In this document: positions 762 to 64,000 of the stretch, in pieces
Position numbering within the stretch: position 1 is the first letter of the stretch
How the letters are laid out: each line of letters opens with the position of its first letter
Notes under the pieces: generated by a model
Database searches by the model: none
What the model saw: the letters and a program-made list of their open reading frames with translations, nothing else
What the model was told of the DNA's origin: nothing
Program-made: the position numbers and the translations under genes
DNA from: Ostreococcus lucimarinus
Lineage: Eukaryota
DNA length: 64,000 bases
Strand: one strand, 5' to 3'
Assembly (NCBI GenBank): GCA_000092065.1
Contig: CP000584.1

Positions 762-833
762 AGTCCGCGACGCGGTGCGTTCGCTCGTTTTACCCGCTAA
801 AATCAATATTCTCAACTCCTACCGCCATGTTTC

Positions 834-1295
834 CTAGTGCGTTTCCGCGAGCTCTTCCTCCCGCTGTCTCGACAGGTGCAACAGCGCGTCCACCCTTCGC
901 TCGCGCGCCGCGCGCCTCGCGTCCACCTCCGCGCTCACCTCCTCGTACCGCATCCCTCGCCCCGGCTCCCCTCCCTCTTCGATGACATCGTATTGATCGT
1001 AATTCGCGTACCCTCTCGCGATCGCCTCCCCTCGCGCGTCTCCCTCGCCCCGCGTTCGCGCCTTCGCGACGTCCTCCGTCTCCCCCATCACCGCCCGTCG
1101 CTTCGCCTCGCGCAACCGTCGCCGCCCCGGATCGTTCCCACGCCTCCCGCGCACCACGCGCGCCATCTGTCGCCCGAGCGCGCACGCGACGCCCACCCCC
1201 AGCGCGAGATACGTCAGCGCGAACATCGCCCGCATCAAATTCGCGTCCCGTTCGACGCGCATCGCCGGCGGCGGCGGCGGCGGCATCGACGCCAT
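834..1295 (-). CDS. small hypothetical single-pass membrane protein (poly-Pro N-terminus, one TM, charged C-terminus)
   Basis: The first in-frame ATG lies inside a much longer antisense ORF (834..2093). The product is MASMPPPPPPAMRV...LMRAMFALTYLALGVGVACALG... and GC3 is high like neighbouring genes. I recognise no homology. Confidence 0.35.
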   Translation of the reverse strand: MASMPPPPPPAMRVERDANLMRAMFALTYLALGVGVACALGRQMARVVRGRRGNDPGRRRLREAKRRAVMGETEDVAKARTRGEGDARGEAIARGYANYDQYDVIEEGGEPGRGMRYEEVSAEVDARRAARERRVDALLHLSRQREEELAETH

Positions 1296-1414
1296 GTCGG
1301 CGTCGAGGACCGGCGCGACGACGTCGAGGATCGTCGCGCGGCGCGCCTCGGTCGCCGCGCGTCGACGAGTCGCGACCGTCGGCGCGCGCCGTCGACGCGT
1401 TCGGCCGCGGCGTT

Positions 1415-1479
1415 GGTCCGTGTTAAAGTGTCCCCGTCGTGAGACTATGGTCCGTGTTAAAGTGTCCCCGTCGTGAGAC
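1415..1479. repeat. 31-bp tandem duplication (ggtccgtgttaaagtgtccccgtcgtgagac x2, 3-nt spacer) in divergent intergenic/promoter region
   Basis: Two exact copies lie at 1415-1445 and 1449-1479 with a relatively AT-rich core (tgttaaagtgt) in an otherwise very GC-rich spacer. They sit between the minus-strand small gene start (1295) and the plus-strand RING gene. Confidence 0.9.
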
Positions 1480-1653
1480 GACCTCGCGACGGTCGCGGTC
1501 GCGGACGCGATTCGTCGTCGCCGCGACGCGACGCGCGCCGACGCGACGCCGCGCGACGCGAGCGACGCGCGCGATCGCGCGGTCGACGCGTCGGACGCGG
1601 ACGCGCGAACGACGCGCGACGCGGAAGCGGGACGAACGACGGCGGAGGATTCG

Positions 1654-3459
1654 ATGGCGCCAGGTGGCGACGAAGCGCCGACGTCGCGCGCGCGCGACGC
1701 GCGGCGCGCGCGAGGAGCGACGCGAGGGCGAGGAGGAGGCGCGCGGCGCGCGTTCGTCGCGATGGCGGTCGCGGTGGCGGTCGCGGCGGCGCGCGTGGGG
1801 GCGTCGTACGACGACGACGACGACGACGACGACAGACGAGGCGCGACGACGCTCGCCGTCGGGGGGGACGCCGAGTACGGCGAGGTCCTGCTGCGACGCG
1901 ATAAGTGGTATCGGTTCGACGTGAGCGGGACGTCGTCGGACGTCGTCGTGGAGTTGGAACGGGAGAGCGGGATACCGCTCGTGTACTTGAAGAAGGACTC
2001 GTCGTCGACGGGGGGGTGGCAAAGAATCGTGGGAGCGTACGCGGCGATCGGGAAGTCGAACGAGTGGTGGGATTTTCCGTTGAAAAGATACACGGTGGGG
2101 AATTACGGCGCGTATGGATACGTGGATGACTACAGAACGATTAAACTCGTCGGCGCGTCGGCGGGGAGGTATTATTTGCGAGTGAAAAACTTGCAGGAGA
2201 CGTCGATGACGACGGGACGGGTGACGTATTCCGACGTCGCGAGGTACAAGCTCAGGGTGCGTTCGACGAGCGATGGCGTGACTCAGGCGCCGTTGTGCGC
2301 GTGGGACTGCTCGAGCCACGGGACGTGCGTGAATAGCGGCTCGGCGACCGGCGATAACACCAAATGTGAGTGCGACGCGTCGCCGACGATAACGGGCGAC
2401 GGCTTCACGTTCGCGAGCGGAAGCGCGTGCAGAGATCGTTACGGGACGTACGAGAACTTGAGATCCAAGTCCTCGTTGACGGTGTCTCCGGGACAGTTTT
2501 TGTACTTGTCGTACGACGCGTGGAATTTAGTCAGTCGATCGCAAGATTACGGCTTAGAAATAGACGTGTACTGGGAGCGCGGCGGCGATCCGTTGCTCCT
2601 GGTCAAGGCTGGTTCGCCACCGACGCTCATCGATTACGACGCGCAGTACGGTTCGTTGCGCCTGGGTTACAATTCTGTCTACCTACCGCGGCTCGCATCG
2701 AGTCAAATGTACTACTTTGCCGTCTTCAATCGCAAGTTTGACGCCAACAGTGACTGCGTTTTCAGAATATCGCTGACGTCGGCTTCGCGGAACAGGGCGA
2801 CGAACTCGCCGAACATGGTGTCCATGGCGCTCGTGTTATTCGTGAGCATGAGCTTTTGCTTCGTCGTCGCCCTCATCAAGCGATACTTTCAGCGACGCTA
2901 CTTGACCCAGTTTCGCGAGCAACGAGTGCAGCAGCTGTCGATGGAAGAATTGCGAACGCAACGCCGCAACGACCGCGACACCAACCCCGGGACACCCGAA
3001 GACATCATCTCGCAAATCGCACTGGTGGATTATCATCCCAACTTGAAGGACGGCATCCTCGCCGACGGACAAGAGCCGACGTGCACGATTTGCTTGGATG
3101 ATTACGTCGAGGGAGACAAGCTGCGACGCTTCCCGCAGTGCAAACACATGTTCCATCAAGAGTGCGCGGACTTGTGGTTACACACGAGCCACACGTGCCC
3201 GAACTGCCGGGCGTCGCTCCTACCGGAAGAGAACGCGCCCGCGGCGGAGAGCGCGCCCGCGGCGGAGAGCGCGCCGATGCCTCCCGGCGTTCCGGGTGGT
3301 GTATACGAGCTTGCACCTCTGCCTTACGCGCTTCGCGGGCAAGCGGCGCCAGTCGTAGTCGTTCACATGCCTCCGCCGCCGACGCCCGTCCGCGGCGCGG
3401 GTGGCATAGCGCCCGCAAATTCGCGTCCGTTCGACTCGAGTGAACTCCCGACCATTTAA
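1654..3459 (+). CDS. transmembrane RING-H2 E3 ubiquitin ligase with EGF-like Cys-rich ectodomain
   Basis: A signal-peptide-like MAVAVAVAAARVGA is followed by an acidic D8 run and an EGF-like CAWDCSSHGTCVNSG...CECD. A TM helix (VSMALVLFVSMSFCFVVALI) precedes the canonical RING-H2 CTICLDDYVEGDKLRRFPQCKHMFHQECADLWLHTSHTCPNCR. The real start may be the internal Met near 1762. Confidence 0.8.
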   Translation: MAPGGDEAPTSRARDARRARGATRGRGGGARRAFVAMAVAVAVAAARVGASYDDDDDDDDRRGATTLAVGGDAEYGEVLLRRDKWYRFDVSGTSSDVVVELERESGIPLVYLKKDSSSTGGWQRIVGAYAAIGKSNEWWDFPLKRYTVGNYGAYGYVDDYRTIKLVGASAGRYYLRVKNLQETSMTTGRVTYSDVARYKLRVRSTSDGVTQAPLCAWDCSSHGTCVNSGSATGDNTKCECDASPTITGDGFTFASGSACRDRYGTYENLRSKSSLTVSPGQFLYLSYDAWNLVSRSQDYGLEIDVYWERGGDPLLLVKAGSPPTLIDYDAQYGSLRLGYNSVYLPRLASSQMYYFAVFNRKFDANSDCVFRISLTSASRNRATNSPNMVSMALVLFVSMSFCFVVALIKRYFQRRYLTQFREQRVQQLSMEELRTQRRNDRDTNPGTPEDIISQIALVDYHPNLKDGILADGQEPTCTICLDDYVEGDKLRRFPQCKHMFHQECADLWLHTSHTCPNCRASLLPEENAPAAESAPAAESAPMPPGVPGGVYELAPLPYALRGQAAPVVVVHMPPPPTPVRGAGGIAPANSRPFDSSELPTI

Positions 3460-3532
3460 GCCCGAGTCGAGCGAACTTTTTACTGTGTCATCATTATTGC
3501 ATATTGTTATCATTACACGTAGCGCATCTTCA

Positions 3533-4540
3533 CTATATTGTCGTATCTTCACTTTTGCGTCGCTGGCCAGTGAGCATCGCACGCGCGCGCCGACCAAGCT
3601 CAACCAAGCTCAATCTGCGACTGACGGCGCCGGTGCCGCGAGCCGGCGAGCCGGCGAGAACCCATGGGTGTCTCGACACCTCGCGTAACGTGATTCGCTT
3701 CTTCGGGTCGGGGTGTAGCATACGAAGAATCAGATCTTTGACCTCGTTCGATATCGATCGAGACATCGGCGCGATGTTTCCCTTCACGATGTTTTCGAGC
3801 GTCAACTTCACGGAGTTTGGGCGGTCTGGATTTTGAAATGGATATGTGCCAGTCAACATGATGTAACAAAAGACCCCGCACGACCAAACATCGCAAGCCT
3901 TCGCGTCGTACTTTGTTCGTCTCACGTTCCCGTCGCCGTCGTGCTTGTCCAGCATCTCGGGCGCCATGTAATCCGGCGTGCCGACCGCGCGCGTCGCGAC
4001 GCTATCCAGGCCCTTGGCCAATCCGAAATCGATGAGTTTCAAATCTCCGTGCGGCTCGCACACGATCGCGTTCTCGGGTTTGACGTCTCGATGACACAAT
4101 CCGTGATCGTGTATCATCCGGATCGCCTCCACGAGCTGCGAGAACAACCGTCTCGCCGTGACTTCGTCCAATCGTCCGCCCCGCGCGTTTATGAAATCCA
4201 AAACGTCGACCCCCCGCGCGAGTTCAAACACCAACACCAACAAATCTTCCCCATCGTTCACAACATTCATCAATCGCACGACTCGACTCGTCGACGCCAT
4301 CAATTTCGTCGCGTACTTGATCTCCCTCTTCACCGCCGCCAGCGGCACCTTCACCCTCGCCCCGTCGCCGACGTCCAAGCACTTCAGCGCGACTTTTTCC
4401 CCCGTCTCCCGATCCACGCCCTCGTACACCAACGCCGTGCCACCGCGATTGATCAGCTTCGTCACCTCGTACCGCGCGTTTTTCCCCACCGTCGTCCCGC
4501 GCGCGAGTTCGTTCGCCGCCGCGCGCGTCGACCGCATCAT
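3533..4540 (-). CDS. serine/threonine protein kinase (CAMK/SnRK-like)
   Basis: All kinase subdomains are present: ATP-binding G-loop-like LINRGGTALVYEG, VALK, HRDVKPEN, DFG, GTPDYMAPE and DVWSCGV. Confidence 0.9.
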   Translation of the reverse strand: MMRSTRAAANELARGTTVGKNARYEVTKLINRGGTALVYEGVDRETGEKVALKCLDVGDGARVKVPLAAVKREIKYATKLMASTSRVVRLMNVVNDGEDLLVLVFELARGVDVLDFINARGGRLDEVTARRLFSQLVEAIRMIHDHGLCHRDVKPENAIVCEPHGDLKLIDFGLAKGLDSVATRAVGTPDYMAPEMLDKHDGDGNVRRTKYDAKACDVWSCGVFCYIMLTGTYPFQNPDRPNSVKLTLENIVKGNIAPMSRSISNEVKDLILRMLHPDPKKRITLREVSRHPWVLAGSPARGTGAVSRRLSLVELGRRARAMLTGQRRKSEDTTI

Positions 4541-4551
4541 CGCGACGTCGA

Positions 4552-5667
4552 TTGGTCTTCTCGGCGATGGCGCCGGGTCGCGATCCGCGTTCGTTCGACG
4601 ACGGCGCGTTCGCGACGACGCGATGCGGTTCGCGACGGACGACGACGCGACGCTCGTTTCGGACGCGCGTCGCGACGAAGGCGCTCGATCGACGCGTCGA
4701 CGAAAGCGACGCGTCGACGAATCGAATCGTTCGCTCGAACGCGTCGACGTGTGGCGATCGAACCGACGCGCGTCGACCGGCGATCGCGACGCGCGGCGAC
4801 GCGATGCGGGACGCGGTGTACTACCCGGACGACGACGACGACGCGCGCGAGGACGCGCGCGAGGACGGCGCGACGACGACGACGCGCGCGGGCGCGACGA
4901 CGACGACGACGACGACGACGATCGCGACGGGCGATGCGAGCGAAGGCGATGGGAAAGCGCGCGCGACGATCGCGACGGGCGCGCGCGAGGGAGGGGGGAG
5001 TTACACCACGCCGGGAGTGGTTCCGCCGGTGATGCCGACGCGGTTGGTGAGCGCGAGGACGTACGAGAGCGAACCGGCGAGAGGGACGCCGGTGAGCGCG
5101 ATTGAGACGCGACCGCGACCGCAGACGATCGCGCGCGCGCAGGGCGGCGTGTTCGCGTTCGTGTCGCCGATGTTCGCGGACATGGATGATCCTCAAGTGC
5201 GCGCGGTGATGGAACGGGAGTTCGCGCGCGAGTTGGGGTTGCCCGAGGGCGAACTGCCGGTGGATTTGGAGCACTTCATGCTGGCGCGACAGTTGAGTCG
5301 CGTGGTGCGTTTGTTCGCGTTGATCGATATGGTGTTGTGCGTGTTGTACGCGCTGAGCGGGGTGAGCGTGATCGCGGTGTTACTCATAGGCCCGCTCGCT
5401 GGGTTCGTGGGGGCGCGCATGTACAGTCCAGGGCTCACCGCTTGTTACGTGGCGTTTTGCGTGGCGTCCATCGTTTGGCGAATTTTGAATTTCGTCTTTA
5501 TGAAAAATGTCACCGCGCGCGTGCTGTCGGTGATCACCATCATCTTAGCGACGTACATCACGCGATTGGTGATTCGGTTTTATCACGTCGTGCGCGTGAT
5601 ACCGCTCGAGGGACAAATTTTGCTTCGGCAACTCGACTTCGCGAACTCGGCGGCGCCCGTGGTCTAA
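4552..5667 (+). CDS. hypothetical multi-pass membrane protein (acidic/T-rich low-complexity N-region)
   Basis: The ORF opens with a TTG; the first ATG is at 4567, only 27 bp from the kinase start on the other strand. The C-terminal ~170 aa contain 3-4 predicted TM helices (VVRLFALIDMVLCVLYALSGVSVIAVLLIGPLAGF...). The true start is uncertain and could be an internal Met. Confidence 0.45.
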   Translation: MVFSAMAPGRDPRSFDDGAFATTRCGSRRTTTRRSFRTRVATKALDRRVDESDASTNRIVRSNASTCGDRTDARRPAIATRGDAMRDAVYYPDDDDDAREDAREDGATTTTRAGATTTTTTTTIATGDASEGDGKARATIATGAREGGGSYTTPGVVPPVMPTRLVSARTYESEPARGTPVSAIETRPRPQTIARAQGGVFAFVSPMFADMDDPQVRAVMEREFARELGLPEGELPVDLEHFMLARQLSRVVRLFALIDMVLCVLYALSGVSVIAVLLIGPLAGFVGARMYSPGLTACYVAFCVASIVWRILNFVFMKNVTARVLSVITIILATYITRLVIRFYHVVRVIPLEGQILLRQLDFANSAAPVV

Positions 5668-5729
5668 ATGTAATTTTCAACGTACAATAGTCGATAGTTA
5701 CAGCTGCTGCTACCTAAACGCCGACCGAC

Positions 5730-6722
5730 CTAACCGCGCGGTTTTTGGTGTCGTCGCCGTCCGAGCGATTTCCAGAACGCCTTGACCTCTTTCCGCGCGT
5801 TCGGACGTCCTCGGCCTCCGCAAAACGACTCGGCGTCTTTGCCTGGCGGAACAAAGCACGCGCACGAGCCGTGTTTTTTCACCTTCTTCACGCGCTTCAA
5901 CACGAACCAGCGACGGACGCGTCGTTTCGACGACGAGCCTTCGCTCGTTATGAGCTTTCGATATCCCTCTCTGTCCTCGACCCAACCGTGCGCGCAAAAC
6001 GTATCCATCCACCACCGCCTCGTTTGATACGTTTCGTCTTCGTCTCCCACCGGGCTCCCACCGTCGAGCGTCTTCGCCAGCGCGAACACCATCATCGCCC
6101 CTTTCTTCGCCACGCGCGTGGCTTCGTTTATCACCGGATCGACGTTTTCTTTCGTCGCCTTCATCTCCATCTTCCCGAACGTCTCGAACGCGACGACGTA
6201 ATCGAAAAACGCTCGTCGATACGGCAAGCGCCGCAACGACGCCGCCGTCGCCACGCCTTTCGCCGCCAAATCTCCCCCCCGATCGCGCGTGCGCGCGATT
6301 CTCGGATCGACGCCCACTATCTTAAACCCTCGTTCTCGCATCTCTCGCAAAAACGTGCCCGTGCCGCACGCCAGCTCCAATCCGCGCGCGTCTCGCCGCC
6401 GTCCCGCCGCCGCGCGCACGAACGCCCCCATCCCTTCGCACGCCCCGCACGTCGCCCGCATCTCCGCCTCGCCGATCGTCACCGCGCGCGTCTCGTCATC
6501 ATCATCCTCCGCTCGCCCTCGCGCGAACCACGACGCGAGCGCGGACGGCGGCGCCGGCGGCGCGCGCACGCGCGCGCCGTCCGGTCGAACGAACGTCGTC
6601 GCGTTCGCATCTTTCGACGCCGCGCGGTGCGCCCACGTCAGCGTCGCGCACGCGACGGCGACGAGGACGAAGAGCGTCGGTCGGCATCGCCTCGGGCGCG
6701 CGACGACGCGCGAGAGCGCCAT
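5730..6722 (-). CDS. secretory-pathway SAM-dependent methyltransferase (Methyltransf_11/25-like) with N-terminal signal/anchor
   Basis: A signal-anchor-like MALSRVVARPRRCRPTLFVLVAVACATLTWA is followed by SAM-binding motif I LELACGTGTFLREM...KIVGVD and an acidic motif II DYVVAFETF. The real start is an internal Met of the longer ORF 5730..7193. Confidence 0.7.
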   Translation of the reverse strand: MALSRVVARPRRCRPTLFVLVAVACATLTWAHRAASKDANATTFVRPDGARVRAPPAPPSALASWFARGRAEDDDDETRAVTIGEAEMRATCGACEGMGAFVRAAAGRRRDARGLELACGTGTFLREMRERGFKIVGVDPRIARTRDRGGDLAAKGVATAASLRRLPYRRAFFDYVVAFETFGKMEMKATKENVDPVINEATRVAKKGAMMVFALAKTLDGGSPVGDEDETYQTRRWWMDTFCAHGWVEDREGYRKLITSEGSSSKRRVRRWFVLKRVKKVKKHGSCACFVPPGKDAESFCGGRGRPNARKEVKAFWKSLGRRRHQKPRG

Positions 6723-6797
6723 CGCGGCGCGGCGCGGCGCGGCGCGAAGTGCCGTTCGGGCGCGGCGCCATTCGTCCGCGCGCGACGACGCGCCGTC

Positions 6798-7580
6798 ATG
6801 GCGGTCGCGGCGCGACCGTCGCGATGGGACTTTCGCGCGCGAGTCTTCTTCGCGCTGTGCGCCGTGACGTGCGCGAGCGGGTGCGCGTGCGCGTGCGCGG
6901 CGCTCGCGCCGGGCGTCGTCAGACGACGCGCGGACGCGCTCTTCAGACTGTCGATTTACGCGTCGACGAGCGCGTTCGCGTACAGGATCGCGTACGGCGC
7001 GGCGACGAGCGTGAAGGCGAGAGATTTTAAGGCGCTCGGCGCGCATCTGTCGCGAAGCGCGCGCTCGAACGGGGGGCAATACATGATTTACGGGTCGATG
7101 GCGTTGGCGAGCGCGCGACGCGGCGGCGCCAACGCGCCGCAGTTGGCGCCTTTGATCGTGCTGAGCGCGTATCAGGTGCTGGCGATCGGGCATAAAGTGT
7201 GGGAGGACGCGGATAGTAAAACGATGTGGTGCAAGCTCGGGTTCGGACGCGTGTTCGACGCGGCGCAGCGAAATATGGAGCTGGCGCTCGCGATTTGCGC
7301 GACGATGGAGGTGTCGCTGATGACGACGATTCTTCTGGATTTAGCGAGTCCTCAGCGACGTAGTTTTAGCCGAGTGATCGCGTACGCGTTTTGGCTTCGA
7401 TCGAGGTATCACTGTCACGATAACACGGTGTTTCGCATCAAGTTTACCGCGCACGATACGGCGCACTACCACAGAGAGGTTTGGAAAATGTTGGACGAGA
7501 AGGTGGCGTCCAAGGTGCCGGCGCTTCGAAAAGCCCTGTCGCCGTTCGCGACGTGGTTCGCCACGCCGTCGGCGTCGTAA
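6798..7580 (+). CDS. hypothetical membrane protein
   Basis: It starts at an ATG 75 bp from the divergent methyltransferase start. The product is hydrophobic with several TM segments (VFFALCAVTCASGCACACAAL; LAPLIVLSAYQVLAIG; LALAICATMEVSLMTTILL). It is the C-terminal part of a long ORF (5745..7580) whose upstream part is antisense to the methyltransferase. Confidence 0.5.
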   Translation: MAVAARPSRWDFRARVFFALCAVTCASGCACACAALAPGVVRRRADALFRLSIYASTSAFAYRIAYGAATSVKARDFKALGAHLSRSARSNGGQYMIYGSMALASARRGGANAPQLAPLIVLSAYQVLAIGHKVWEDADSKTMWCKLGFGRVFDAAQRNMELALAICATMEVSLMTTILLDLASPQRRSFSRVIAYAFWLRSRYHCHDNTVFRIKFTAHDTAHYHREVWKMLDEKVASKVPALRKALSPFATWFATPSAS

Positions 7581-7634
7581 TGTTGTAACGAGCGTGTTGA
7601 ATATTAATCATCATCTAAAAGTTCGTCCGATCTA

Positions 7635-10103: not shown

Positions 10104-11714
10104 CTACTTCGGCGCGCGATGCTCTCGCCAGAGGAAGAAACCGCAGTCACAATCGGGATTGGTGCGCGCGCCGGCCGGGCGCGGGCAGCAAAAGAACACG
10201 CGTCCACAGTGTGGGCTCTCCTTCTTCTTCACCGTGCGTACTTTGCACGTTTCGCCGTGCTTGCACTTGGGAGGCGCCATTTTGGCGAACGTGTTCATCC
10301 ACGCGCCTCGCGCTTCTTCGGAGCTCACTTTCGTCTCGCGCGATTCGAATGCGTTCGCCGTGGGTGCTATAGGTTGTTCTACTGTGTCTAGTTGGCGTTC
10401 GTTTCGGTCATCCGGCTCTTTCTTTTTGGACTTGACGACGAAGAAATCTTTCAACGTCGCTTCGGGCTTGCGCTTGGGCGCGTCTGAGACGCCCGCGCGG
10501 GATTGGGCGCGGGCGCTTGGGCGCGTCGGCTTCGCTCGCGACTGAGACGCCGCGTTAAGAAATTCCGGCGTCGCGTTGCTCGTCGACGATGCGCGTGCGA
10601 ATATTGAATCTACCGTGGTTTGTCGACCTGGGTAAAGCATCGAAATCGCCAAAGACGGAGGCGTTTGTTGCGAATCTCTCCGCCTCCACATCGATTCCTC
10701 GAGCTCAAGATAGACTGGCGCGTGATCGCTCCCTTCAAATTTTTGTGCCACACCGACGCCTCGGACGCGCTTCAACGTCACCGCTCGATCGCACAAGAAA
10801 TAATCGATTCGTGATCCATAATTGGACAACTGCGCTCCACTCGCAACGTTCCAACACGTGAACGCATCGCCGAGCGTCGGAAAAAATTCGCGAAACACGT
10901 CCACCATCGCGTCCCCGGCAAGTTGTGCCGCGAGCCAATCGCGCGATGGATTTCGAGGTTCCACCGCGTTCGGGTCTTCATCCGCGCGATCGAGTTTCCA
11001 CGACGGTGCGATGTTCCAATCACCGCATAAAATCACATTTCGACCGCGTTCGCGCAGACTCTTGTATCTCGCCTCGAGCGCGCTCAAAAAATCGCGCTTG
11101 AACGCCGCGCGCTCGGCTGTTTTCTCATCGACCGCTGGATCGCCGAAAACGGCCGGCACGTACACCGTGCACAGAACGAACTCACCGAAATCGACCCACA
11201 ACGCCCTGCCCTCGCCGTCGATCTCTTTCGCGCGCGTCGCGTCGTCCGCGAACGGCGCGATTTCTCCCGCCCACATGGTCGACTCGCCCGCGTCGCCTTT
11301 CGCGCACACTCCCCGCTCGATCGACGTCGGGCAAATCTCGTTCGAGCGCCAGTACACCGCCACGCCGCTGTATCCCACGCGGTGATTGGAGGATTCGCAC
11401 ACCGCGTGGGCGCCGTCCCAACCTTCGACGCGTTCCAGCCGCTCGACGTCGCCGCTCGAGCTCAGCTTTGTTTCCTGCAAACAAATCACCTTCAAATCGC
11501 TTCCGAGCGCGTCGAACAGCGCCTTCATGGACCCGTAGCCGTGTATCCGACGCACGCCGTGCGCGTCCGCGCGTCCGTTCGTTTTTTGCGCCGCGCGCGC
11601 GTCCGTGAGCGCGCGCAACCCGCGCAGACCGACGTTCCACGAGACAATCGTCGAGCGTCGCGACGCCGCGTTCGAGCGTCGAGGGTACGCGCGCGCGTCG
11701 TCGGGCGTCGACAT
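10104..11714 (-). CDS. APEX2: AP endonuclease 2 (exonuclease III family) with C-terminal GRF-type zinc finger
   Basis: Endonuclease/exonuclease/phosphatase motifs are present (IVSWNVGLRG, CLQETK, CGDWNIAP, GSRIDYF, SDHAPV). The C-terminal zf-GRF is CKHGETCKVRTVKKKESPHCGRVFFCCPRP...CDCGFFLW. Confidence 0.9.
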   Translation of the reverse strand: MSTPDDARAYPRRSNAASRRSTIVSWNVGLRGLRALTDARAAQKTNGRADAHGVRRIHGYGSMKALFDALGSDLKVICLQETKLSSSGDVERLERVEGWDGAHAVCESSNHRVGYSGVAVYWRSNEICPTSIERGVCAKGDAGESTMWAGEIAPFADDATRAKEIDGEGRALWVDFGEFVLCTVYVPAVFGDPAVDEKTAERAAFKRDFLSALEARYKSLRERGRNVILCGDWNIAPSWKLDRADEDPNAVEPRNPSRDWLAAQLAGDAMVDVFREFFPTLGDAFTCWNVASGAQLSNYGSRIDYFLCDRAVTLKRVRGVGVAQKFEGSDHAPVYLELEESMWRRRDSQQTPPSLAISMLYPGRQTTVDSIFARASSTSNATPEFLNAASQSRAKPTRPSARAQSRAGVSDAPKRKPEATLKDFFVVKSKKKEPDDRNERQLDTVEQPIAPTANAFESRETKVSSEEARGAWMNTFAKMAPPKCKHGETCKVRTVKKKESPHCGRVFFCCPRPAGARTNPDCDCGFFLWREHRAPK

Positions 11715-11844: not shown

Positions 11845-14418
11845 CTAGAGGACGAGCTTGACCCACGGCATGTCGCACGCGTCGTTCTCGCAGTTCTCCA
11901 CCAGCGCGAACGTGATGTCAGCCATGGGCACGGAGAGGGAAATTTGTTGTAAATTTCTGGCCGTCGAGGCGTCCGTCATGATGAGGTGCGTGGAACGTAA
12001 GCGAGAGGCGATGCGAACGCCGCTCCCAATCGGGGGCTCGGCGACGTTTACGCGCGGATCTTTGCACATCACCTTGAGCATTTGCATCACCGTGCCCATG
12101 TCCACGGTGGTCGTGCCGGTGCGTTGAAGCGCCTTAACCAACGCTATCAAGAACATGCGCTCGTAAAAGCTCGCAGCGTGAATGAGTTTCATGTGCGGAC
12201 CGTCGAACATTTCGCTTTGCGCTTGGCGGACGTCGTCCATGGTTACTTTTTCGATGCGAGCCTTGGCGCGCGCTGCGGCGCCCTCTTCTGGTTGCGCGTT
12301 TTGCAAAGTGAGAGTAGTCACCTTTTCGACGTTAATTCTGGCTTCGGCGACTTCCGCCGCTCGCCGCGCGAGTTCGAGCGCTCGCCGCGCGTCGCCGTTC
12401 ACCGAAGCAACTTTTCTGCAAATCAAGTCGAGGGTCGACGGCGCGTAGGCGTCGCTGCATCCCTCGACACTTTCCAGACGCGAGGTGACGATCTTCTTGA
12501 GCTGTTCCCAGGAATACGGAGCGAAAGCCGCGCGATTGCTTCCGAGTCGAGACGCGATGCGCGGGAGCATGCGTTCGGGTACGTCGAGCGTGTTGGCGAT
12601 GCCGATGACGACGAGTCGACTCTTCTTGTGAGTCGGCCAATCGAAAATATTGTACAGCACGTCTTGCCTGTGCGTAACGAGCAAATCAAGCTCGTCGACG
12701 ATGAGAACTGTGACTCGTCCATCGCTTCCTTTGCCTTCCTTGAATCTCTTCTCCAAGACCATGCTCGCTTTGTCCGGGCTAAACTTTTGCCCCATCAACT
12801 CTTCGGCGATGGTGCTGTACGCGTGCTTGGGCGTTTGCAAACGGAGCGCGTTGAGCTCAACGTGGTTGAACTTTGGAATCACGCCGTTGCGCGCTTGCGA
12901 ACGAAGGACCCGTATGATTTCGCGAACTGTCGCCGTCTTGCCCGTACCGGGGACGCCGGAAATGTACAGACATTTTCCCGTGCTGTGCGAACCCGCCATG
13001 ATGGCTTCGTGCACGAAGTCGTAGACTTGCTTGCGTTCGTTTTCGCGACACGGCAGCGTCGCCGGCGTCGATGCCAGAGATAACACAGCGCGCACGCCGC
13101 CTAAAACAGTCGACGGGTGCTTCCTACCACGACTGAGAGCGCTGCCACCGAAACCAGCAATCTCCAAACGCGCCGCCGCGTCTTCCACACGCCGTCGAGC
13201 GGCGAGACGACCCGCGAGACGACTGTTGGCGCCCGACTTTTTGTCCTTCTTTTTCTTCGAGTCCCAGTCGTCGTCCTCTGCGTCGCGCCAGTCTAATTCA
13301 TTCTCAAAGCGATCGTCGTCGCTGAATTCGTCCTCTTCGCCCCATTCGCCGCGACGCTTGAAGCGCTGAAACGCGGTGTCGTACGTGTATTCGCACACGT
13401 ACGTGTCGTGCGATCCTTCCTCTTGATCTCGGAATTCTTGAGGCGTGCACACCTTGGCGACGCGAAATAAGCAATCGACGGGATTAACGTCGACGTTATG
13501 CGTCAAAAACACCTCGCGCCGATGCTGAATGGGTTGGCGTCCCATGTGCGTCTCCTCGGGCAGCGCGTACCATCGCGCCGCGAATTGGTACTCTCCGTTC
13601 TCTTCCCAAATGTGCTCTATACGCGCTAAATGGAACCTACCCGCCATGAACTCCGTGCACGCGGTGCGCGTCAACGTTTCGATTCGCGGCACCGCGCTCG
13701 CGGCCTCCCCGCCCCGCGCACACAACGGACAGTGCCAATCGCTCTCCGGCACGCGCGTCAGCGGCGGCTTGAGACAGCACATGTGCCACCCGCTCAGACA
13801 CGTATCGCACTCGAGCATGATTCGATCCGCGTTCGGCGCTTCACCGCACACCATGCAAGGACAATCTTCGTCGTCATCGAAATCGACCGTTTTCTCGTTC
13901 ACCACGTACACGCTATCGCCCACGGCAAACTTTTCGCCTTCCAAATTCACGCACTTCCAATACTTGCGCTTCGGCGCCGCCGCCGCCGCGTTCAATTTTT
14001 TTCCCCTCCCCACCTTTTTCCCGTCCGACCCCCCCCCGACGTCGCTCGCGACGTCCCGCGCGTCGCGCGTCCTCGTCCTCTCCCCCTCGCTCGCTTTCGC
14101 CTTCGTCTTTTTCCCTCCTCTCCCCGACGCGTCCCTCGCCGCGTCGTCGTCTCGCGTCCGCGCCGCCTCCGTCTCCATCTCCTTCCTCCCTCGCGCCATC
14201 TGCGCCAAAAACGCCGCGTTCGCCCGCTTCTTCTTCTTCTTCTTCTTCGCCTTCCCATCGTTCGCGTCCTCGTCGTCCCGTCCCGTCGTCGTCGTCGTCG
14301 TCGTCGTCTTTCGCTTCGTCGGTCGCGTCCCATCCTCGGTGGCGTACACCCGCGTCGCCATCGCGCGCGCGCGCGACGTCGACGCGAGTCGCGATCGCAG
14401 TCGCGTCTGCCGCTCCAT
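11845..14418 (-). CDS. ORC1: origin recognition complex subunit 1 (plant-type: BAH domain interrupted by PHD finger, AAA+ ATPase, winged helix)
   Basis: The BAH domain begins at KYWKCVNLEGEKFAVGDSVYVV. A PHD finger (CPCMVCGEAPNADRIMLECDTCLSGWHMCCLKPP...WHCPLCA) is inserted within it. The AAA+ region has Walker A GVPGTGKTAT, Walker B LIVDELDLL and sensor motifs. A Lys/Thr-rich low-complexity N-terminus is present. Confidence 0.9.
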   Translation of the reverse strand: MERQTRLRSRLASTSRARAMATRVYATEDGTRPTKRKTTTTTTTTGRDDEDANDGKAKKKKKKKRANAAFLAQMARGRKEMETEAARTRDDDAARDASGRGGKKTKAKASEGERTRTRDARDVASDVGGGSDGKKVGRGKKLNAAAAAPKRKYWKCVNLEGEKFAVGDSVYVVNEKTVDFDDDEDCPCMVCGEAPNADRIMLECDTCLSGWHMCCLKPPLTRVPESDWHCPLCARGGEAASAVPRIETLTRTACTEFMAGRFHLARIEHIWEENGEYQFAARWYALPEETHMGRQPIQHRREVFLTHNVDVNPVDCLFRVAKVCTPQEFRDQEEGSHDTYVCEYTYDTAFQRFKRRGEWGEEDEFSDDDRFENELDWRDAEDDDWDSKKKKDKKSGANSRLAGRLAARRRVEDAAARLEIAGFGGSALSRGRKHPSTVLGGVRAVLSLASTPATLPCRENERKQVYDFVHEAIMAGSHSTGKCLYISGVPGTGKTATVREIIRVLRSQARNGVIPKFNHVELNALRLQTPKHAYSTIAEELMGQKFSPDKASMVLEKRFKEGKGSDGRVTVLIVDELDLLVTHRQDVLYNIFDWPTHKKSRLVVIGIANTLDVPERMLPRIASRLGSNRAAFAPYSWEQLKKIVTSRLESVEGCSDAYAPSTLDLICRKVASVNGDARRALELARRAAEVAEARINVEKVTTLTLQNAQPEEGAAARAKARIEKVTMDDVRQAQSEMFDGPHMKLIHAASFYERMFLIALVKALQRTGTTTVDMGTVMQMLKVMCKDPRVNVAEPPIGSGVRIASRLRSTHLIMTDASTARNLQQISLSVPMADITFALVENCENDACDMPWVKLVL

Positions 14419-14564
14419 CTCGTCCGTCGTCCCTCGTCGCCGGCGTCGCGGTGTGAGCGCGCGTCGCGGTGTGCGCGCACCGCGATTCGAATCGATCGCG
14501 CGACAGCTCGAGTTTGAATTCGCGTTCGCGTCGTCGCGAGTGCGACGCGCGCGAGGGACGACGG

Positions 14565-16250
14565 ATGCGCGTCTCGACGTCGACGCGCGTCTCGATCGCG
14601 GTCGCGTCGACGCCGCGTCGCGCGCGTCGGCGACGACGCGCGAACGCGACGCGACGACGCGCGTTCGACGACGACGACGACGACGACGACGGACTCGATG
14701 GACTCGTGCGACGGGCGTGCGCGCGAATCGGACGCGGCGACGAGGAAGCGAAAGAGATGACGGCGCGATTGCGGGCGAATTGGTTCGAGACGGCGGAGGA
14801 CGTGCGAGGGATGGGGCCGGAGGACGCGCGCGCGGCGGGAATGCCGGCGAGGCTGTACGCGAGCGTGCGGGCGACGCTGGACGAGGACGAAGAAGACGAC
14901 GTAGAGGCGAGAAATGGGGAAACGAAGCGCGAGGAGAGCGAAAGTGGGTGGATCGGGGGGGCGCTGCCGGGCGCGGGAACGCGCGCGCCGACGGTGACGC
15001 GAGAGGGAGGGACGGCGCTCGCCGACGTGCGCGTGACGCAACGGCGACGATTGAAACCGTTTTCTCTGCGCGGCGAAGAGGTGAGCGCGGAGTTGGAGGA
15101 AGAGTTGAATACGCTGGTGAGAGATTTGACGTCGAGACGCGTCGGTGGTGGGCGCGCGCCCGTGCGAGAGCGCACGGCGATGAATCACGTCGCCGTGGCG
15201 AAGCAATTCATGGGATGGTTGTGCCGAGAGTCAGAGCACGCGAGCGAGTTTGCGACTCTGAGCGTCGATGGACGCGTGGTGTTGCGTCCGGGCGTGTCGT
15301 TGCGCGACGCGTTTCCGAAGCGCGAATCCGTAGGCGCGAAGTACGCGATAGAATACGTTCAGTGGCTCAGCGACGAGCGTCGCATCAAATCGACGACGGA
15401 GGATTTTCAGCTGCGAAGTCTCGTCGCCTTGGCGAAGTGGGTGCACGCGTTCGTCGAAGACGACGGTATAGCGCCGCCGTGCGTGCAAGAGCTCGTTCGA
15501 GTGCAGCGATCGGCGCGCGATCGCGCGAAAAACGCCCCACACGCCGCGGACGACGACCGAAAATGGCTCGAATGGGATCAGTACTTGGCGCTCGTCGAGC
15601 ATCTCAAACTCGAGTGCGCGCCGCTGGATTGCAACGGCAAAGAGCGCTCTGAGCGCGAAATCGCGATGAGCGTGCAGCGCTATTTATTGTTCGCCATCTT
15701 GGCGTGCATTCCCGATCGCCAGCGAACGTTGCGCGAGCTGCAGTTGAACAAGACGCTCTTTCGCGACGCCTCCACCGGCGCGTGGATGGTGCGTCACGGC
15801 AGCGACGATTACAAAACGGGCGGCGCCTACGGCGAGCGACCCGCGCTCGTGATCGATTCTCGCGTCTATCCAGCGCTCGAGAGTTGGCTCTCCACCCACC
15901 GAGCCGCGTTATCGCCGTCCCACGACTTTGTTTTCACCCGCCCCAACGGCACGCCCTGGACGGTGAGCGAATTGTCGCGAACGTTTTCCCGCGCCGCCCT
16001 TCGCGTCACCGGCCAAAAGACCAATCCCCACTTGATTCGCGACATGATCGTCACCCACGTCCGCTCTCGCGGCATCGCCAGCGACGCCGAGCTCGAGGCC
16101 TTGGCTCGTTTCATGGGTCACTCCAGCGCCATGCAAAAGTCCACCTACGACCGCCGCACGACGCAAGAAAAAGTCAACCCGGCGTTGTCGTTGATGGCCA
16201 ACGTCAACGCCGCCGCGCCGCCGTCGCGACCGGCGTCCGCGCCGTCCTAG
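14565..16250 (+). CDS. tyrosine recombinase (phage-integrase/Crypton-like) domain protein, stand-alone
   Basis: The catalytic domain has box I Arg in DRQRTLRELQL, the beta2-3 Lys in YKTGGAYGERPALVID, box II H-x-x-R in NPHLIRDMIVTHV, and LGHS-type ARFMGHSSAMQKSTYDRR with the catalytic Tyr codon at 16146-16148. An upstream SAM-like core-binding segment (RERTAMNHVAVAKQFMGWL) is present. The ORF opens at GTG 14469; the first ATG is at 14565. There is no RT, RNase H or transposase DDE domain nearby, and composition matches the host. Confidence 0.75.
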   Translation: MRVSTSTRVSIAVASTPRRARRRRRANATRRRAFDDDDDDDDGLDGLVRRACARIGRGDEEAKEMTARLRANWFETAEDVRGMGPEDARAAGMPARLYASVRATLDEDEEDDVEARNGETKREESESGWIGGALPGAGTRAPTVTREGGTALADVRVTQRRRLKPFSLRGEEVSAELEEELNTLVRDLTSRRVGGGRAPVRERTAMNHVAVAKQFMGWLCRESEHASEFATLSVDGRVVLRPGVSLRDAFPKRESVGAKYAIEYVQWLSDERRIKSTTEDFQLRSLVALAKWVHAFVEDDGIAPPCVQELVRVQRSARDRAKNAPHAADDDRKWLEWDQYLALVEHLKLECAPLDCNGKERSEREIAMSVQRYLLFAILACIPDRQRTLRELQLNKTLFRDASTGAWMVRHGSDDYKTGGAYGERPALVIDSRVYPALESWLSTHRAALSPSHDFVFTRPNGTPWTVSELSRTFSRAALRVTGQKTNPHLIRDMIVTHVRSRGIASDAELEALARFMGHSSAMQKSTYDRRTTQEKVNPALSLMANVNAAAPPSRPASAPS

Positions 16251-16648: not shown

Positions 16649-17779
16649 ATGGCGCCGAACGACGGCGAACGAACGGCGTTCGCGCTGAAGATCGCGCGAG
16701 GGCGCGTCGTGGAGGTGACGAAGACGAACGGGGAGACGATCGAGGGGGTGTTCGCGGAGACGACGAAGAACGGCGGCGAGGCGACGATCAAGTACGGATG
16801 GACGAAACGCGAGGCGGGGGCGAAAGAGCGGGCGCAGAGGAGCAAACCGATGGAAACGATGGCGATCGCGATGGATGAGATCGCGAGCATCACGGCGAGA
16901 GACGTGGGGATGAGCGATTTGGCGGTGGGGCCGAGTCGAATGAACGACGACTTCACCGACGGCGGCATCTCGAGAGGGGCGACGGGACAGGATCGCGAAC
17001 TCGTCGCGTGGGCGCCGGAAGAGGGCGATGGAGCGAGTGGGATGACGCTCGAGGAAGAGGCTGGGATCGGGGCGAAGAAGGCGGCGGCGGCGGCGTGGGG
17101 GAAGAAATCCGGCGGACAGTGGGACCAATTCTCCGCCAATAAGCAACTCTTCGGCGTCGACACCAAGTTTGACGAATCCTTGTACACGACGACGATCGAT
17201 AAGGCCAAGGGAGGGATCTCCGAAGCCGAGGCCGCGCGCATCGCGTACGAGATTCAGAATCAAATCTCGGACAACCCGCACGTCGCGGAGGAACGTGGCC
17301 AAAAGGCGCTCGCGGATTACGACGAAGAGGAACGATACTCCTCGGTGTTGCCCACGCCGAAAGGCGCGGCGCCGCCGACGCCGGCGTGGGGCTCGGGCAA
17401 GGTGCCGAGCACCGTCGCGCAGCACGCGGAAAAGAAGCCCGCGGGTGAGAAGGCGAAGGACGTCGCCCAGCCCGCGGACGCGTCCAAGTCCAAGCTCAAC
17501 GCCGACGCCAAGTCTTTCTCTCTCAGCGCCAAGGCGGCCGAGTTCGTGCCGACGTTCAAAAAGCCAGCCGCGCCGCAAGTGCCGCCCACGGGACCGCAAA
17601 TGATGATGTACCCGGGTATCCCGCAAATGCAAGGCCAAATGATGTACATGCCGCAAATGGGCATGGGCGTTCCGCCGCAAATGCGAGGCATGATGCCGGG
17701 TATGCCGTACATGCCGCAACAAGGCATGGGCGTCCCGCACGGTGCGCCTCCCACACGACCACCCGAGGGTGAGAACTGA
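16649..17779 (+). CDS. ataxin-2-like protein (Lsm + LsmAD + PAM2 PABP-binding motif)
   Basis: The Lsm fold is RVVEVTKTNGETIEGVFAET and the LsmAD is GGQWDQFSANKQLFGVDTKFDESLYTTTID. The PAM2 motif is SKLNADAKSFSLSAKAAEFVPTF. A Met/Gln/Pro-rich C-terminus is present. The start is an internal ATG of ORF 15704..17779, whose upstream part is out of frame with and overlaps the recombinase gene. Confidence 0.85.
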   Translation: MAPNDGERTAFALKIARGRVVEVTKTNGETIEGVFAETTKNGGEATIKYGWTKREAGAKERAQRSKPMETMAIAMDEIASITARDVGMSDLAVGPSRMNDDFTDGGISRGATGQDRELVAWAPEEGDGASGMTLEEEAGIGAKKAAAAAWGKKSGGQWDQFSANKQLFGVDTKFDESLYTTTIDKAKGGISEAEAARIAYEIQNQISDNPHVAEERGQKALADYDEEERYSSVLPTPKGAAPPTPAWGSGKVPSTVAQHAEKKPAGEKAKDVAQPADASKSKLNADAKSFSLSAKAAEFVPTFKKPAAPQVPPTGPQMMMYPGIPQMQGQMMYMPQMGMGVPPQMRGMMPGMPYMPQQGMGVPHGAPPTRPPEGEN

Positions 17780-18051
17780 GCTCGCGTTCGCGTACACAAC
17801 GAGCGAGTGCGTTCCATAGGCGTCGCGCGCGCGCCATCCGAAACCGTCAAACCGTCGACGCGCTCGCTCGACGTTTGATTTTGTCCGTCTCCGACGACGC
17901 AATAACACATTACCGACAAAACATATTATCCAGGCGACTCCGACGGCGCGTCGCGTCTTCGCCTTTCGCGACCGTCGACGCGAGCGCGAAACGACGTCCC
18001 GACGGGACGACTGGCGACCCCGCGCGGCGGTTACCGCACATCGCGCCGACG

Positions 18052-19173
18052 ATGCGCGTCGCGCGCGCCTTCGTCGTCGCTTTCGCGCGCGCGCGCCCGC
18101 GAGTGACGCGCGCCGCGCGTCCGAGCGCGCCCGCGACGAAACCGCGCGTCTGCGCCCCCCTCTGCGCGTCCGCCGACGACCGCGCGCTGCACAGCCTCGA
18201 CGGCTGCGACGACGCCAGCGACGCGCCGTACGTCGTCGTCAAGCGCGTCGACGCCCACGACGTCGGCGCGCTCGGTGATGTGTTACTTTCTCTCGGTGCC
18301 TCGTCCGTGTCGACGATCGACGCCGACGCGGGGACGGAGGACGAGCACGAAATCTTCAGCGCCAACACGTTCGAGGAGCAGGCGAGCGACAAGACGAAGG
18401 CGCGCGTTTGGGCGAAGTGCCACGTGACGGCGTACTTTGAAGATCACGCGCGAGCGCGCGCGGGAATCGAGGCGGCGGAAGAAATTTTGGGGATTTCGTT
18501 GGAAGCGTCGTACGCGGAGTCGAAATCAAACGATTGGGTGCAGGCGGTGAAGGATAGCTTTACGCCGACGAAAATCGCGGACGGGCTGTACATCGTGCCG
18601 GATTGGTGTAAAGACGTCGATGCGAACGCTGTGAACATCGCGCTGGAGCCGGGCATCGCGTTCGGTACCGGTGAACATCCGACGACGCGGTTGTGCCTGC
18701 GCTGGCTGAAACAGACTTTGGCGAGGCGAGGGAAGACCGAGCTCGTGGTCGATTTCGGATGCGGCTCGGGCGTACTCGCGATCGGAGCGCTCGTCATGGG
18801 GGCCGACCGCGCGGTGGGCGTGGATTTGGCGAAACAAGCCGTGCAGAGTTCTATCGACAACGCCAAGTTGAATGGTGTGGAGGATCGCTTGACGACGTAT
18901 CTTGGCGACGGACGCGATCCCGGAACTCCGGGCGCGAACGGGCAGGCGGACGTCGTCGTCGCGAATATTTTAATCGGCCCCGTGCTCGAGTTGGAGCCAC
19001 TCTTCGCGGGGTACTGTAAAGTCGGTGGCGAAATCGCGTTGAGTGGGATTTTATACGGTGAGCAGAGCGCATCTGTCGTGGCAAAGTACGCGCGTCATTT
19101 CGACAATATTTGCGTCGTCGAGGAAGGTGGGTGGGCGTGCGTGCACGGCGTACGAAACGGAACGCCAGTCTGA
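18052..19173 (+). CDS. prmA: ribosomal protein L11 methyltransferase (PrmA family), probable organellar
   Basis: The hallmark GTGEHPTTRLCLRWL is followed by SAM motif VVDFGCGSGVLAIGA and then VVANIL. A basic R/A-rich presequence follows the first ATG at 18052. The ORF-track start at 17875 is a TTG in an AT-rich leader. Confidence 0.85.
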   Translation: MRVARAFVVAFARARPRVTRAARPSAPATKPRVCAPLCASADDRALHSLDGCDDASDAPYVVVKRVDAHDVGALGDVLLSLGASSVSTIDADAGTEDEHEIFSANTFEEQASDKTKARVWAKCHVTAYFEDHARARAGIEAAEEILGISLEASYAESKSNDWVQAVKDSFTPTKIADGLYIVPDWCKDVDANAVNIALEPGIAFGTGEHPTTRLCLRWLKQTLARRGKTELVVDFGCGSGVLAIGALVMGADRAVGVDLAKQAVQSSIDNAKLNGVEDRLTTYLGDGRDPGTPGANGQADVVVANILIGPVLELEPLFAGYCKVGGEIALSGILYGEQSASVVAKYARHFDNICVVEEGGWACVHGVRNGTPV

Positions 19174-63842: not shown

Positions 63843-64000
63843 TAGGGTTTAGGGTTTCGGTTTAGGGTTTAGGGTTTAGGGTTTAGGGTTTAGGGTTTAG
63901 GGTTTAGGGTTTAGGGTTTAGGGTTTAGGGTTTAGGGTTTAGGGTTTAGGGTTTAGGGTTTAGGGTTTAGGGTTTAGGGTTTAGGGTTTAGGGTTTAGGG
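63843..64000 (+). repeat. telomere: (TTTAGGG)n, G-rich strand 5'->3' toward window end (right chromosome terminus)
   Basis: The array starts with TAGGGTTTAGGGTTTCGG and then has more than 19 perfect TTTAGGG units to the last base. Its orientation is correct for a physical chromosome end. Confidence 0.95.

Follow-up and report, generated by a model that had tools for sequence, protein, structure and literature searches.

Does a stand-alone tyrosine recombinase (YR) gene that lies among the housekeeping genes of a green alga belong to a mobile element or to its host? The question is raised by a 64,000-nucleotide stretch of DNA (hereafter the window; contig CP000584.1 of assembly GCA_000092065.1) from Ostreococcus lucimarinus CCE9901, which encodes on its plus strand a YR whose product is 99-100% identical to database proteins. 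An earlier note on the window had left the choice between a novel Crypton-like element and a domesticated recombinase, and the second alternative is the one that stood. The YR is very probably a fixed host gene encoding an intact tyrosine recombinase; it is a single-copy (the copy count covers the 64-kb window), vertically inherited nuclear gene of O. lucimarinus, and it belongs to a large and ancient eukaryotic family with members in green algae, diatoms and other ochrophytes, an oomycete, amoebozoans and a choanoflagellate.

A host gene in a conserved locus

Syntenic orthologues, named by the earlier note as a sign of domestication, were found in two further Ostreococcus lineages, where metagenomic contigs carry the YR at 76% and 66% protein identity. 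The gene order S41 peptidase, APEX2, ORC1, YR, ataxin-2-like, PrmA and TPR is identical in the three lineages, and within this syntenic block the YR is conserved like the housekeeping genes around it, whose identities lie between 50% and 86%. The ratio of non-synonymous to synonymous substitutions (dN/dS), calculated by the Nei-Gojobori method, is 0.21-0.25 for the recombinase, 0.14-0.19 for ORC1 and 0.14-0.23 for the ataxin-2-like gene, the ratios being rough since dS is about 1 or more and near saturation. The YR is under purifying selection, as its neighbours are.

Two more distant Mamiellophyceae-like metagenomic lineages, which are probably of the Micromonas type, encode the YR at 47-51% identity. 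In these, the gene is located directly downstream of a DNA-methylase and SNF2 gene of ~2400 aa (DNMT5-like), with a protein kinase beyond (contigs L002-L004 and L019, about 200-7600), and the order DNMT-SNF2 followed by YR represents a second conserved gene context. The family genes of Acanthamoeba castellanii, Chlamydomonas incerta and Seminavis are also embedded among ordinary host genes, and those of A. castellanii (3.1 kb for 659 aa) and C. incerta (7.2 kb for 891 aa) contain introns, as the gene span exceeds the coding length. The host-like base composition and codon style claimed for the O. lucimarinus gene were borne out by a GC content at third codon positions (GC3) of 0.78, within the 0.65-0.81 of the neighbours, and by a codon-usage cosine of 0.95 to the neighbours, which is as similar as the neighbours are among themselves. 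No second YR copy was found within the 64-kb window, where the best other tblastn match had an E value of 0.5.

A Crypton-like DNA transposon with the YR as its sole gene, still active or active until recently, would agree with a stand-alone YR that has an intact active site and no partner open reading frame (ORF), and Cryptons are themselves low-copy and free of terminal inverted repeats (TIRs) (PMC3212892). The absences listed earlier were likewise found again, as ORFs and Pfam revealed no reverse transcriptase (RT), RNase H, DDE or helicase partner at the locus, and no TIR or long terminal repeat (LTR) surrounds the gene, its flanks holding only CG-rich low-complexity repeats. Such an element would nevertheless have to occupy the same slot, flanked by ORC1 and the ataxin-2-like gene, in all three Ostreococcus lineages at a dS of about 1 or more, and the 146-bp upstream spacer to ORC1 leaves hardly any room for its ends. 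The flanks were tested for Crypton ends (4-6 bp direct repeats, TATGG for CryptonS), which gave no terminal direct repeats save low-complexity CG-rich matches, repeats of 4-6 bp being unjudgeable from one copy. In addition, CryptonF elements feature GCR1_C and CryptonS elements a conserved C-terminal region (PMC3212892), whereas the YR ends 33 aa beyond its catalytic Tyr without a C-terminal domain of either type and gave no Pfam match to GCR1_C or to DUF3504 (PF12012). Because of the shared synteny, the housekeeping-like conservation, the introns in relatives and the lack of another copy in the window, the Crypton-like reading is largely refuted for Ostreococcus and is regarded as highly improbable. 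No more credible is a recent horizontal acquisition from a virus or bacterium, without a conserved host role. Phages and giant viruses typically carry YRs, and weak structural matches to integrases of phage, Tetraselmis virus and Harvfovirus were obtained; against this, no relative was present among 2.9 million IMG/VR viral contigs, the BFVD fold matches were generic phage integrases at 10-17% identity with E values of 5e-6 or weaker, and the synteny, the eukaryote-wide spread and a eukaryote-specific SAM-like domain point to ancient residence.

Active site, domains and gene model

The complete Int-family active site claimed for the gene was retained on alignment, with R385, K417, H489, R492, H519 and Y528 all present. 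Among the 298 sequences spanning all six catalytic positions, the R-K-H-R-H-Y set is complete in 285, R385, R492 and Y528 occur without exception, and nearly all of the 13 exceptions are His substitutions within a prokaryote-like group. Since the catalytic set is this invariable, it argues strongly that catalysis, and not merely DNA binding, is under selection, and the retained residues indicate that the YR is apparently a catalytically competent tyrosine site-specific recombinase.

The assignment of the individual residues was assisted by hhalign against Escherichia coli XerD, which gave a probability of 93.6% and paired H489 with H244, R492 with R247, H519 with H270 and Y528 with Y279. The codon previously proposed for the nucleophile is TAC. 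K417 sits three residues before the partner of XerD K172, implying a longer hairpin. For catalytic Arg I, global hhalign to XerD and Cre was unreliable in that region and conservation was used instead: all 138 non-redundant sequences carry R385, as against 132 with R387 and 131 with R390, and R385 is consequently the best candidate for this residue.

Pfam PF00589 (Phage_integrase) matched the C-terminal part of the full ORF at 26.3 bits (E 7e-6), under its gathering score of 27.1, and the YR trimmed of its low-complexity N-terminus scored 27.4 bits, so that the profile check recommended by the earlier note was marginally positive; the same profile matched 26 of 46 family members at E<0.01. A PDB sequence search with the single YR protein yielded noise only (E about 1), while the family profile retrieved XerD at E 2.5e-6. 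The AlphaFold model of the YR has a pLDDT of 81, and the list of known structures comprises archaeal XerC-like (4a8e; 13.4), XerA (12.6), XerH (12.4), Cre (11.5), XerD (11.4), Tn1549 Int (10.7), IntI4 (9.8), type IB topoisomerases (8-9), Flp (8.7) and the Crypton-derived QRICH1 (6.5). The core-binding-like segment postulated upstream of the catalytic part corresponds to a core-binding-type helical domain at aa 175-323, which is preceded by a SAM-like helical domain (Table 1).

Concerning the gene boundaries, the ORF of 14469-16250 (593 aa) described earlier is present, and its GTG opening is only a mechanical start. The first ATG, at 14565, is preferred because 560-aa database models exist and orthologues conserve the stretch just downstream. 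The models deposited for the locus as UniProt A4RWS7 (automatically named 'Tyr recombinase domain-containing protein') and XP_001417382.1 have 497 aa. Compared over window positions 14565-14760, this RefSeq/UniProt model appears to be N-terminally truncated and would cut into the conserved N-terminal domain, and the start at ATG 14565 (561 aa) restores the SAM-like domain, which is conserved in orthologues and confidently modelled.

Table 1. Features of the YR gene and its neighbours in the window (aa numbering from ATG 14565)
Feature	Position	Strand	Basis or remark
APEX2 (context)	about 10107-11618	-	Exo_endo_phos and GRF zinc ribbon in orthologues
ORC1 (context)	11845..14418	-	Pfam BAH, PHD, AAA, Cdc6 lid, Cdc6_C (winged helix)
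Intergenic region ORC1/YR, 146 bp	14419..14564	.	ORC1 start 14418 (-) and YR ATG 14565
YR coding sequence, 561 aa + stop	14565..16250	+	ORF, ATG, 99-100% database matches
N-terminal 34 aa, MRVSTSTRVSIAVASTPRRARRRRRANATRRRAF	14565..14666	+	sequence; disordered in AlphaFold model
Asp run after the N-terminal 34 aa	14667-14693	+	
SAM-like helical N-terminal domain, aa 44-118	14694..14918	+	
Core-binding-type helical domain, aa 175-323	15087..15533	+	
Catalytic domain, aa 337-549, with C-terminal helix after Tyr	15573..16211	+	
R385 in PDRQRTLRE, best candidate catalytic Arg I	15717..15719	+	conservation; alternatives R387, R390
R387, alternative Arg I	15723-15725	+	
K417 (DYKTG), beta-hairpin catalytic Lys	15813..15815	+	family conservation
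H489-x-x-R492 (NPHLIRD)	16029..16040	+	aligned to XerD H244, R247
H519 (MGHSS)	16119..16121	+	aligned to XerD H270; conserved
Y528 (STYDRR), nucleophilic Tyr, codon TAC	16146..16148	+	aligned to XerD Y279
Ataxin-2-like gene (context)	16649..17779	+	Pfam SM-ATX, LsmAD, PAM2

A eukaryotic family with cyanobacterial relatives

A family profile search of 1.84 billion representative proteins returned 2478 matches at E<=1e-3 and 392 at E<=1e-30, most of them 450-750 aa in length and aligned over the core-binding and catalytic domains. Named members come from green algae (Ostreococcus, Chlamydomonas incerta, C. schloesseri, Chlorella sorokiniana, Monoraphidium and Tetraselmis), diatoms (Seminavis, Mayamaea, Thalassiosira oceanica, Stephanodiscus, Cyclostephanos and Extubocellulus), the oomycete Achlya hypogyna, the Amoebozoa (Acanthamoeba, Balamuthia and Dermamoeba) and the choanoflagellate Salpingoeca urceolata. 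The family combines a SAM-like, a core-binding and a catalytic domain, which in the O. lucimarinus YR follow a presequence-like N-terminus, and the genes are expressed, as several of the sequences derive from transcriptomes. To restrict stand-alone YRs of eukaryotes essentially to Cryptons was thus too narrow, since a separate and widespread family exists whose nearest prokaryotic relatives are cyanobacterial integrases.

Several individual members deserve comment. The protein filed in EukProt under the 'pelagophyte' Pelagococcus subviridis is 64% identical to the Ostreococcus YR and carries Micromonas-type insertions, and it is probably a prasinophyte contamination of the transcriptome, not a pelagophyte gene. 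The 1058-aa model of Chlorella sorokiniana joins the YR to saccharopine dehydrogenase and is probably a merged gene model, and a 1145-aa transcript member (P0211) has a DnaJ domain N-terminal to the recombinase.

Prokaryotic relatives were sought with three family motifs, drawn from eukaryotic proteins, in one genome per species of 185,579 bacterial and archaeal species. In total, nine relatives were confirmed, all of them from cyanobacteria: Nostoc, Microcoleus (two), Kamptonema, Stenomitos (two), Leptolyngbyaceae, Xenococcus and one uncultured. Two further named relatives are 'site-specific integrase' proteins of Coleofasciculaceae and Oscillatoriophycideae. These long integrases (530-650 aa in Microcoleus, Nostoc, Kamptonema, Stenomitos and Coleofasciculaceae) are the closest kin of the family outside eukaryotes, the best of them being 33-36% identical to it over about 400 residues of the core-binding and catalytic domains with E values down to 6e-69, and the motifs PDRQRT.RE, DYKTG, NPH..RD, MGHS and YDRR are common to both. 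One of them matched PF00589 at E 4e-11. Different from the YR, they lack the SAM-like domain, are found in mobile-element-like contexts, and have His II or His III substituted in some cases.

In the two Microcoleus genomes (L010, 8465-10114, -; L012, 8020-11115, -) the integrase has different neighbours: one adjoining gene encodes a Prim-Pol/HTH protein, and the other a primase-helicase-like protein of the architecture DUF3854-D5_N-DUF5906. Primases of the Prim-Pol and D5 types are typical replication modules of integrative elements, and their alternation next to related integrases suggests that such modules are exchanged within a family of integrative elements of cyanobacteria. CHAT, LRR and Fic genes also occur near the cyanobacterial integrases, the contexts looking accessory, and no tRNA gene was found within 5 kb of these loci.

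In a neighbour-joining tree of 138 sequences and 419 columns, in which most tips are unnamed and the root is uncertain, all named eukaryotes formed one group apart from the cyanobacterial and unnamed prokaryote-like sequences (bootstrap 55/60), and midpoint rooting placed the prokaryote-like sequences as a deeper, paraphyletic set. The members from Acanthamoeba and Balamuthia cluster near the base of the green-lineage group in this tree. Since all prokaryotic relatives detected are integrases of cyanobacteria and of the kind carried by mobile elements, the most suitable interpretation of the family is that of an integrase captured long ago ('domesticated') whose chemistry appears to be retained. 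A cyanobacterial integrase of this type would have been captured once, either early in eukaryotes or in an early algal lineage with subsequent eukaryote-to-eukaryote spread, and would later have gained the SAM-like domain.

Probable organelle targeting, proposed function and comparison with known systems

The O. lucimarinus YR starts with MRVSTSTRVSIAVASTPRRARRRRRANATRRRAF, 34 aa without an acidic residue, in which R, S, T and A abound as they do in organelle transit peptides. Throughout the family, the N-terminal extensions before the first conserved domain are poorly conserved (median 63 aa), enriched in Arg/Lys and Ala, and poor in Asp and Glu, which make up 4.3% of them compared with 12.4% of the whole proteins. 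Green-lineage starts resemble transit peptides, being rich in A, R and S with few acidic residues, and a hydrophobic, signal-peptide-like start was seen in only 3 of 35. Such a start is found in 32 of 60 sequences of the ochrophyte/diatom clade, and in 17 of these 32 it is followed within a few residues by A, S, C or G directly before F, as in FLAASA-FQPAVP, ASVHA-FCLF, HHCLA-FQSS and AVLA-FCFVP (junction marked by a hyphen), which we take to match the ASAFAP-type bipartite plastid presequence of diatoms. The starts of the heterotrophs Achlya (MLRAAIGQARHHVGRRCFS), Salpingoeca (MLLASVARSGRRHVV) and Dermamoeba (MFSRFALNLSRNPRPTFSF) are similar to mitochondrial presequences.

As judged by composition and simple patterns, the extension changes in character from lineage to lineage in line with the organelle import to be expected there. 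It is suggestive of a DNA-containing organelle as the site of action, and targeting of the YR to the plastid in algae and to the mitochondrion in heterotrophs is, on balance, the more probable localization. A plastid-only reading based on endosymbiotic gene transfer was dropped, as amoebozoan, choanoflagellate and oomycete members exist. An Arg/Ala-rich, acid-free N-terminus like that of the YR (MRVARAFVVAFARARPRVTRAARPSAP) was also observed in the PrmA-like methyltransferase encoded two genes downstream (17875-19173, +).

The mechanism can be proposed by analogy with Cre, Xer and lambda Int, characterized members of the same fold. After import into the organelle, a homo-oligomer of the YR, arranged as a dimer of dimers, would bind a pair of short core sites on the organelle chromosome, each site having inverted arms. 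Y528 would cleave the DNA to generate a 3'-phosphotyrosyl intermediate, one strand pair would be exchanged to form a Holliday junction, and isomerisation would be followed by the exchange of the second pair. The predicted helix after the Tyr (aa 533-549) is placed like the helix that other YRs donate to the neighbouring subunit.

The purpose of such exchange might be Xer-like resolution of organelle genome multimers or, alternatively, a programmed or controlled inversion. In a compartment whose genomes are multicopy, recombining and circular-mapping, multimer resolution would be the most economical task for a housekeeping recombinase that is itself single-copy. The analysts' confidence differs between the parts of this proposal. 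That the YR is an organelle-targeted, catalytically competent host recombinase acting on organelle DNA is somewhat favoured by the sequence evidence. It is suggested tentatively, and with some reserve, that the family would represent a widespread, nucleus-encoded and organelle-imported recombinase, derived from a cyanobacterial mobile-element integrase, with a XerCD/dif-like role for plastid and/or mitochondrial chromosomes. That the YR specifically resolves organelle genome multimers is an analogy that may well not hold and must be called doubtful.

Several observations count against this reading. The presequence calls derive from composition and simple patterns, and many gene-model starts in metagenomic data are unreliable. 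The Acanthamoeba model has no N-terminal presequence, which may reflect a mis-called start, another localization or horizontal transfer from an alga, and the Arg-rich N-terminus of the Ostreococcus YR could be a nuclear localization signal. In regard to the origin, the phylogeny is a neighbour-joining tree only, with its uncertain root and mostly unnamed tips, and, as the motifs of the genome scan were eukaryote-derived, more distant relatives may exist in other bacterial phyla. Moreover, the YR is no orthologue of XerC, XerD or XerA, as the NCBIfam models score only 19-28 bits against cut-offs of 220-335 (XerC, TIGR02224, 25.4 versus 335; XerA, NF040815, 19.5 versus 220; XerD is TIGR02225).

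Two other explanations retain the gene as a host gene and alter its task. According to one of them, the YR would be a nuclear domesticated recombinase with a specific DNA rearrangement in the nucleus, such as one at repeated loci or subtelomeres, which it would either catalyse or attend by binding only. The stretch RRARRRRR as a possible nuclear localization signal, the Acanthamoeba model and the location of the Mamiellophyceae genes beside genes of DNA metabolism (ORC1 and APEX2, or DNMT-SNF2 in the Micromonas type) would be in keeping with this, but many ochrophyte starts, with a hydrophobic signal peptide and then Phe, are incompatible with nuclear import, the heterotroph starts are presequence-like, the neighbours vary by lineage so that the clustering is probably coincidental, and the surroundings of the YR gene showed neither a repeat nor a candidate site for a nuclear reaction. 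A nuclear role is accordingly considered rather unlikely. The other explanation, a catalytically dead DNA-binding or regulatory protein of the YR fold, has counterparts in the DUF3504 proteins KCTD1, ZMYM and QRICH1 and in the phage regulators MrpR and SroF. It is difficult to reconcile with six catalytic positions kept in 285 of 298 sequences and with R385, R492 and Y528 being invariant from green algae to amoebozoans and the choanoflagellate, which would be unexpected if the chemistry were dispensable, and it is judged improbable.

Among the known systems, the YR most resembles the Xer recombinases (XerC/XerD, XerH, XerS and archaeal XerA) in fold and housekeeping character, from which it differs in being eukaryotic, nucleus-encoded and about twice as long, with an extra SAM-like domain and an N-terminal extension. 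Flp and R of the yeast 2-micron plasmids are also eukaryotic, catalytically active YRs and invert DNA between inverted repeats. In DIRS, Ngaro and PAT elements the YR is linked to RT, RNase H and terminal repeats, whereas the YR locus has no RT/RNase H ORF. To our knowledge, the eukaryotic YRs described so far are either selfish (Crypton, DIRS, Ngaro, 2-micron Flp and Starship captains) or catalytically dead DUF3504 remnants.

Cryptons (CryptonF, S, A and I) share with the YR a eukaryotic, nucleus-encoded, stand-alone ORF without RT, TIRs or LTRs, and the YR is set apart from them by the test of mobility, by the absence of their extra domains and by the missing DUF3504 signal (Crypton features according to PMC3212892). 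Domestication of a YR has a precedent in the Crypton-derived DUF3504 genes (PMC3212892); these have lost most of the catalytic tetrad, all of which is kept by the YR. Organelle-encoded YRs comprise tyrC in the plastids of Heterosigma and diatoms, int in the Oedogonium plastid and mitochondrial YRs in Prototheca and Chaetosphaeridium, and the organelle DNA has been proposed as their substrate, with the resolution of multimers at dif-like sites as one of their tasks (PMC2410131). Their length is about 300 aa, and they reside in the organelle genome, occur sporadically and are thought to be recent lateral transfers, in contrast to the present family, which is nucleus-encoded, 550-700 aa long, widespread and vertically inherited. 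In the full-text literature, only papers on organelle-encoded tyrC/int and on Cryptons were found and no description of the nuclear family, which is apparently undescribed so far.

The surroundings of the gene in O. lucimarinus can be summarized as follows. The divergent arrangement with ORC1 at about 150 bp and the proximity of APEX2 had been recognized correctly, the head-to-head distance from the YR ATG being 146 bp, and this spacer is presumed from its position to be a bidirectional promoter. A 34-nt direct repeat of 91% identity is found at 14374-14407, in the first ORC1 codons (-), and at 14575-14608, in the first YR codons (+); the pair flanks the shared promoter region and may be mere CG-rich low complexity. 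The clustering of three DNA-metabolism genes holds in Ostreococcus, but the cluster is not conserved beyond this genus and is probably without functional meaning. Such a meaning was rejected because other neighbours are found in the Micromonas-type contigs, Acanthamoeba and Seminavis; the neighbourhoods are DNA-related in Ostreococcus (ORC1, APEX2) and in the Micromonas type (DNMT-SNF2), and neither of them is conserved in Acanthamoeba and Seminavis.

A telomeric (TAGGGTT)n array of 22.7 copies with 97% match occupies 63843-64000. As it runs to the last base, the window reaches the chromosome end, and the YR lies about 47.6-49.4 kb from it, in agreement with the distance of about 48 kb given previously. 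A telomeric or subtelomeric role, which had been offered as speculation, was supported by nothing in the analysis. The top-scoring non-telomeric tandem repeat in the window is a 15-nt unit, AAGAAGACGCCGACG, present in 7.2 copies with 98% match at 51303-51410.

Of this gene, the automatic 'Tyr recombinase domain' label was already known, and the family, its breadth, its status as a host gene and its likely organellar role appear to be new. As the YR is fixed, under purifying selection and in possession of its catalytic residues across distant eukaryotes, a host process that still needs site-specific strand exchange is indicated. If the family is indeed a widespread organelle-imported recombinase of cyanobacterial mobile-element origin, no other host tyrosine recombinase that is both conserved and catalytically active would have been known in eukaryotes before it. 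If the organelle targeting is true, the family would provide a testable answer to how plastid or mitochondrial genome multimers or isomers are handled in many protists, and would illustrate the capture of an integrase from a mobile element of cyanobacteria; a naturally organelle-targeted recombinase could also be of use in engineering the plastids of algae. In annotation, an 'integrase' call from an algal genome or a marine metagenome does not have to signify a transposon or virus.

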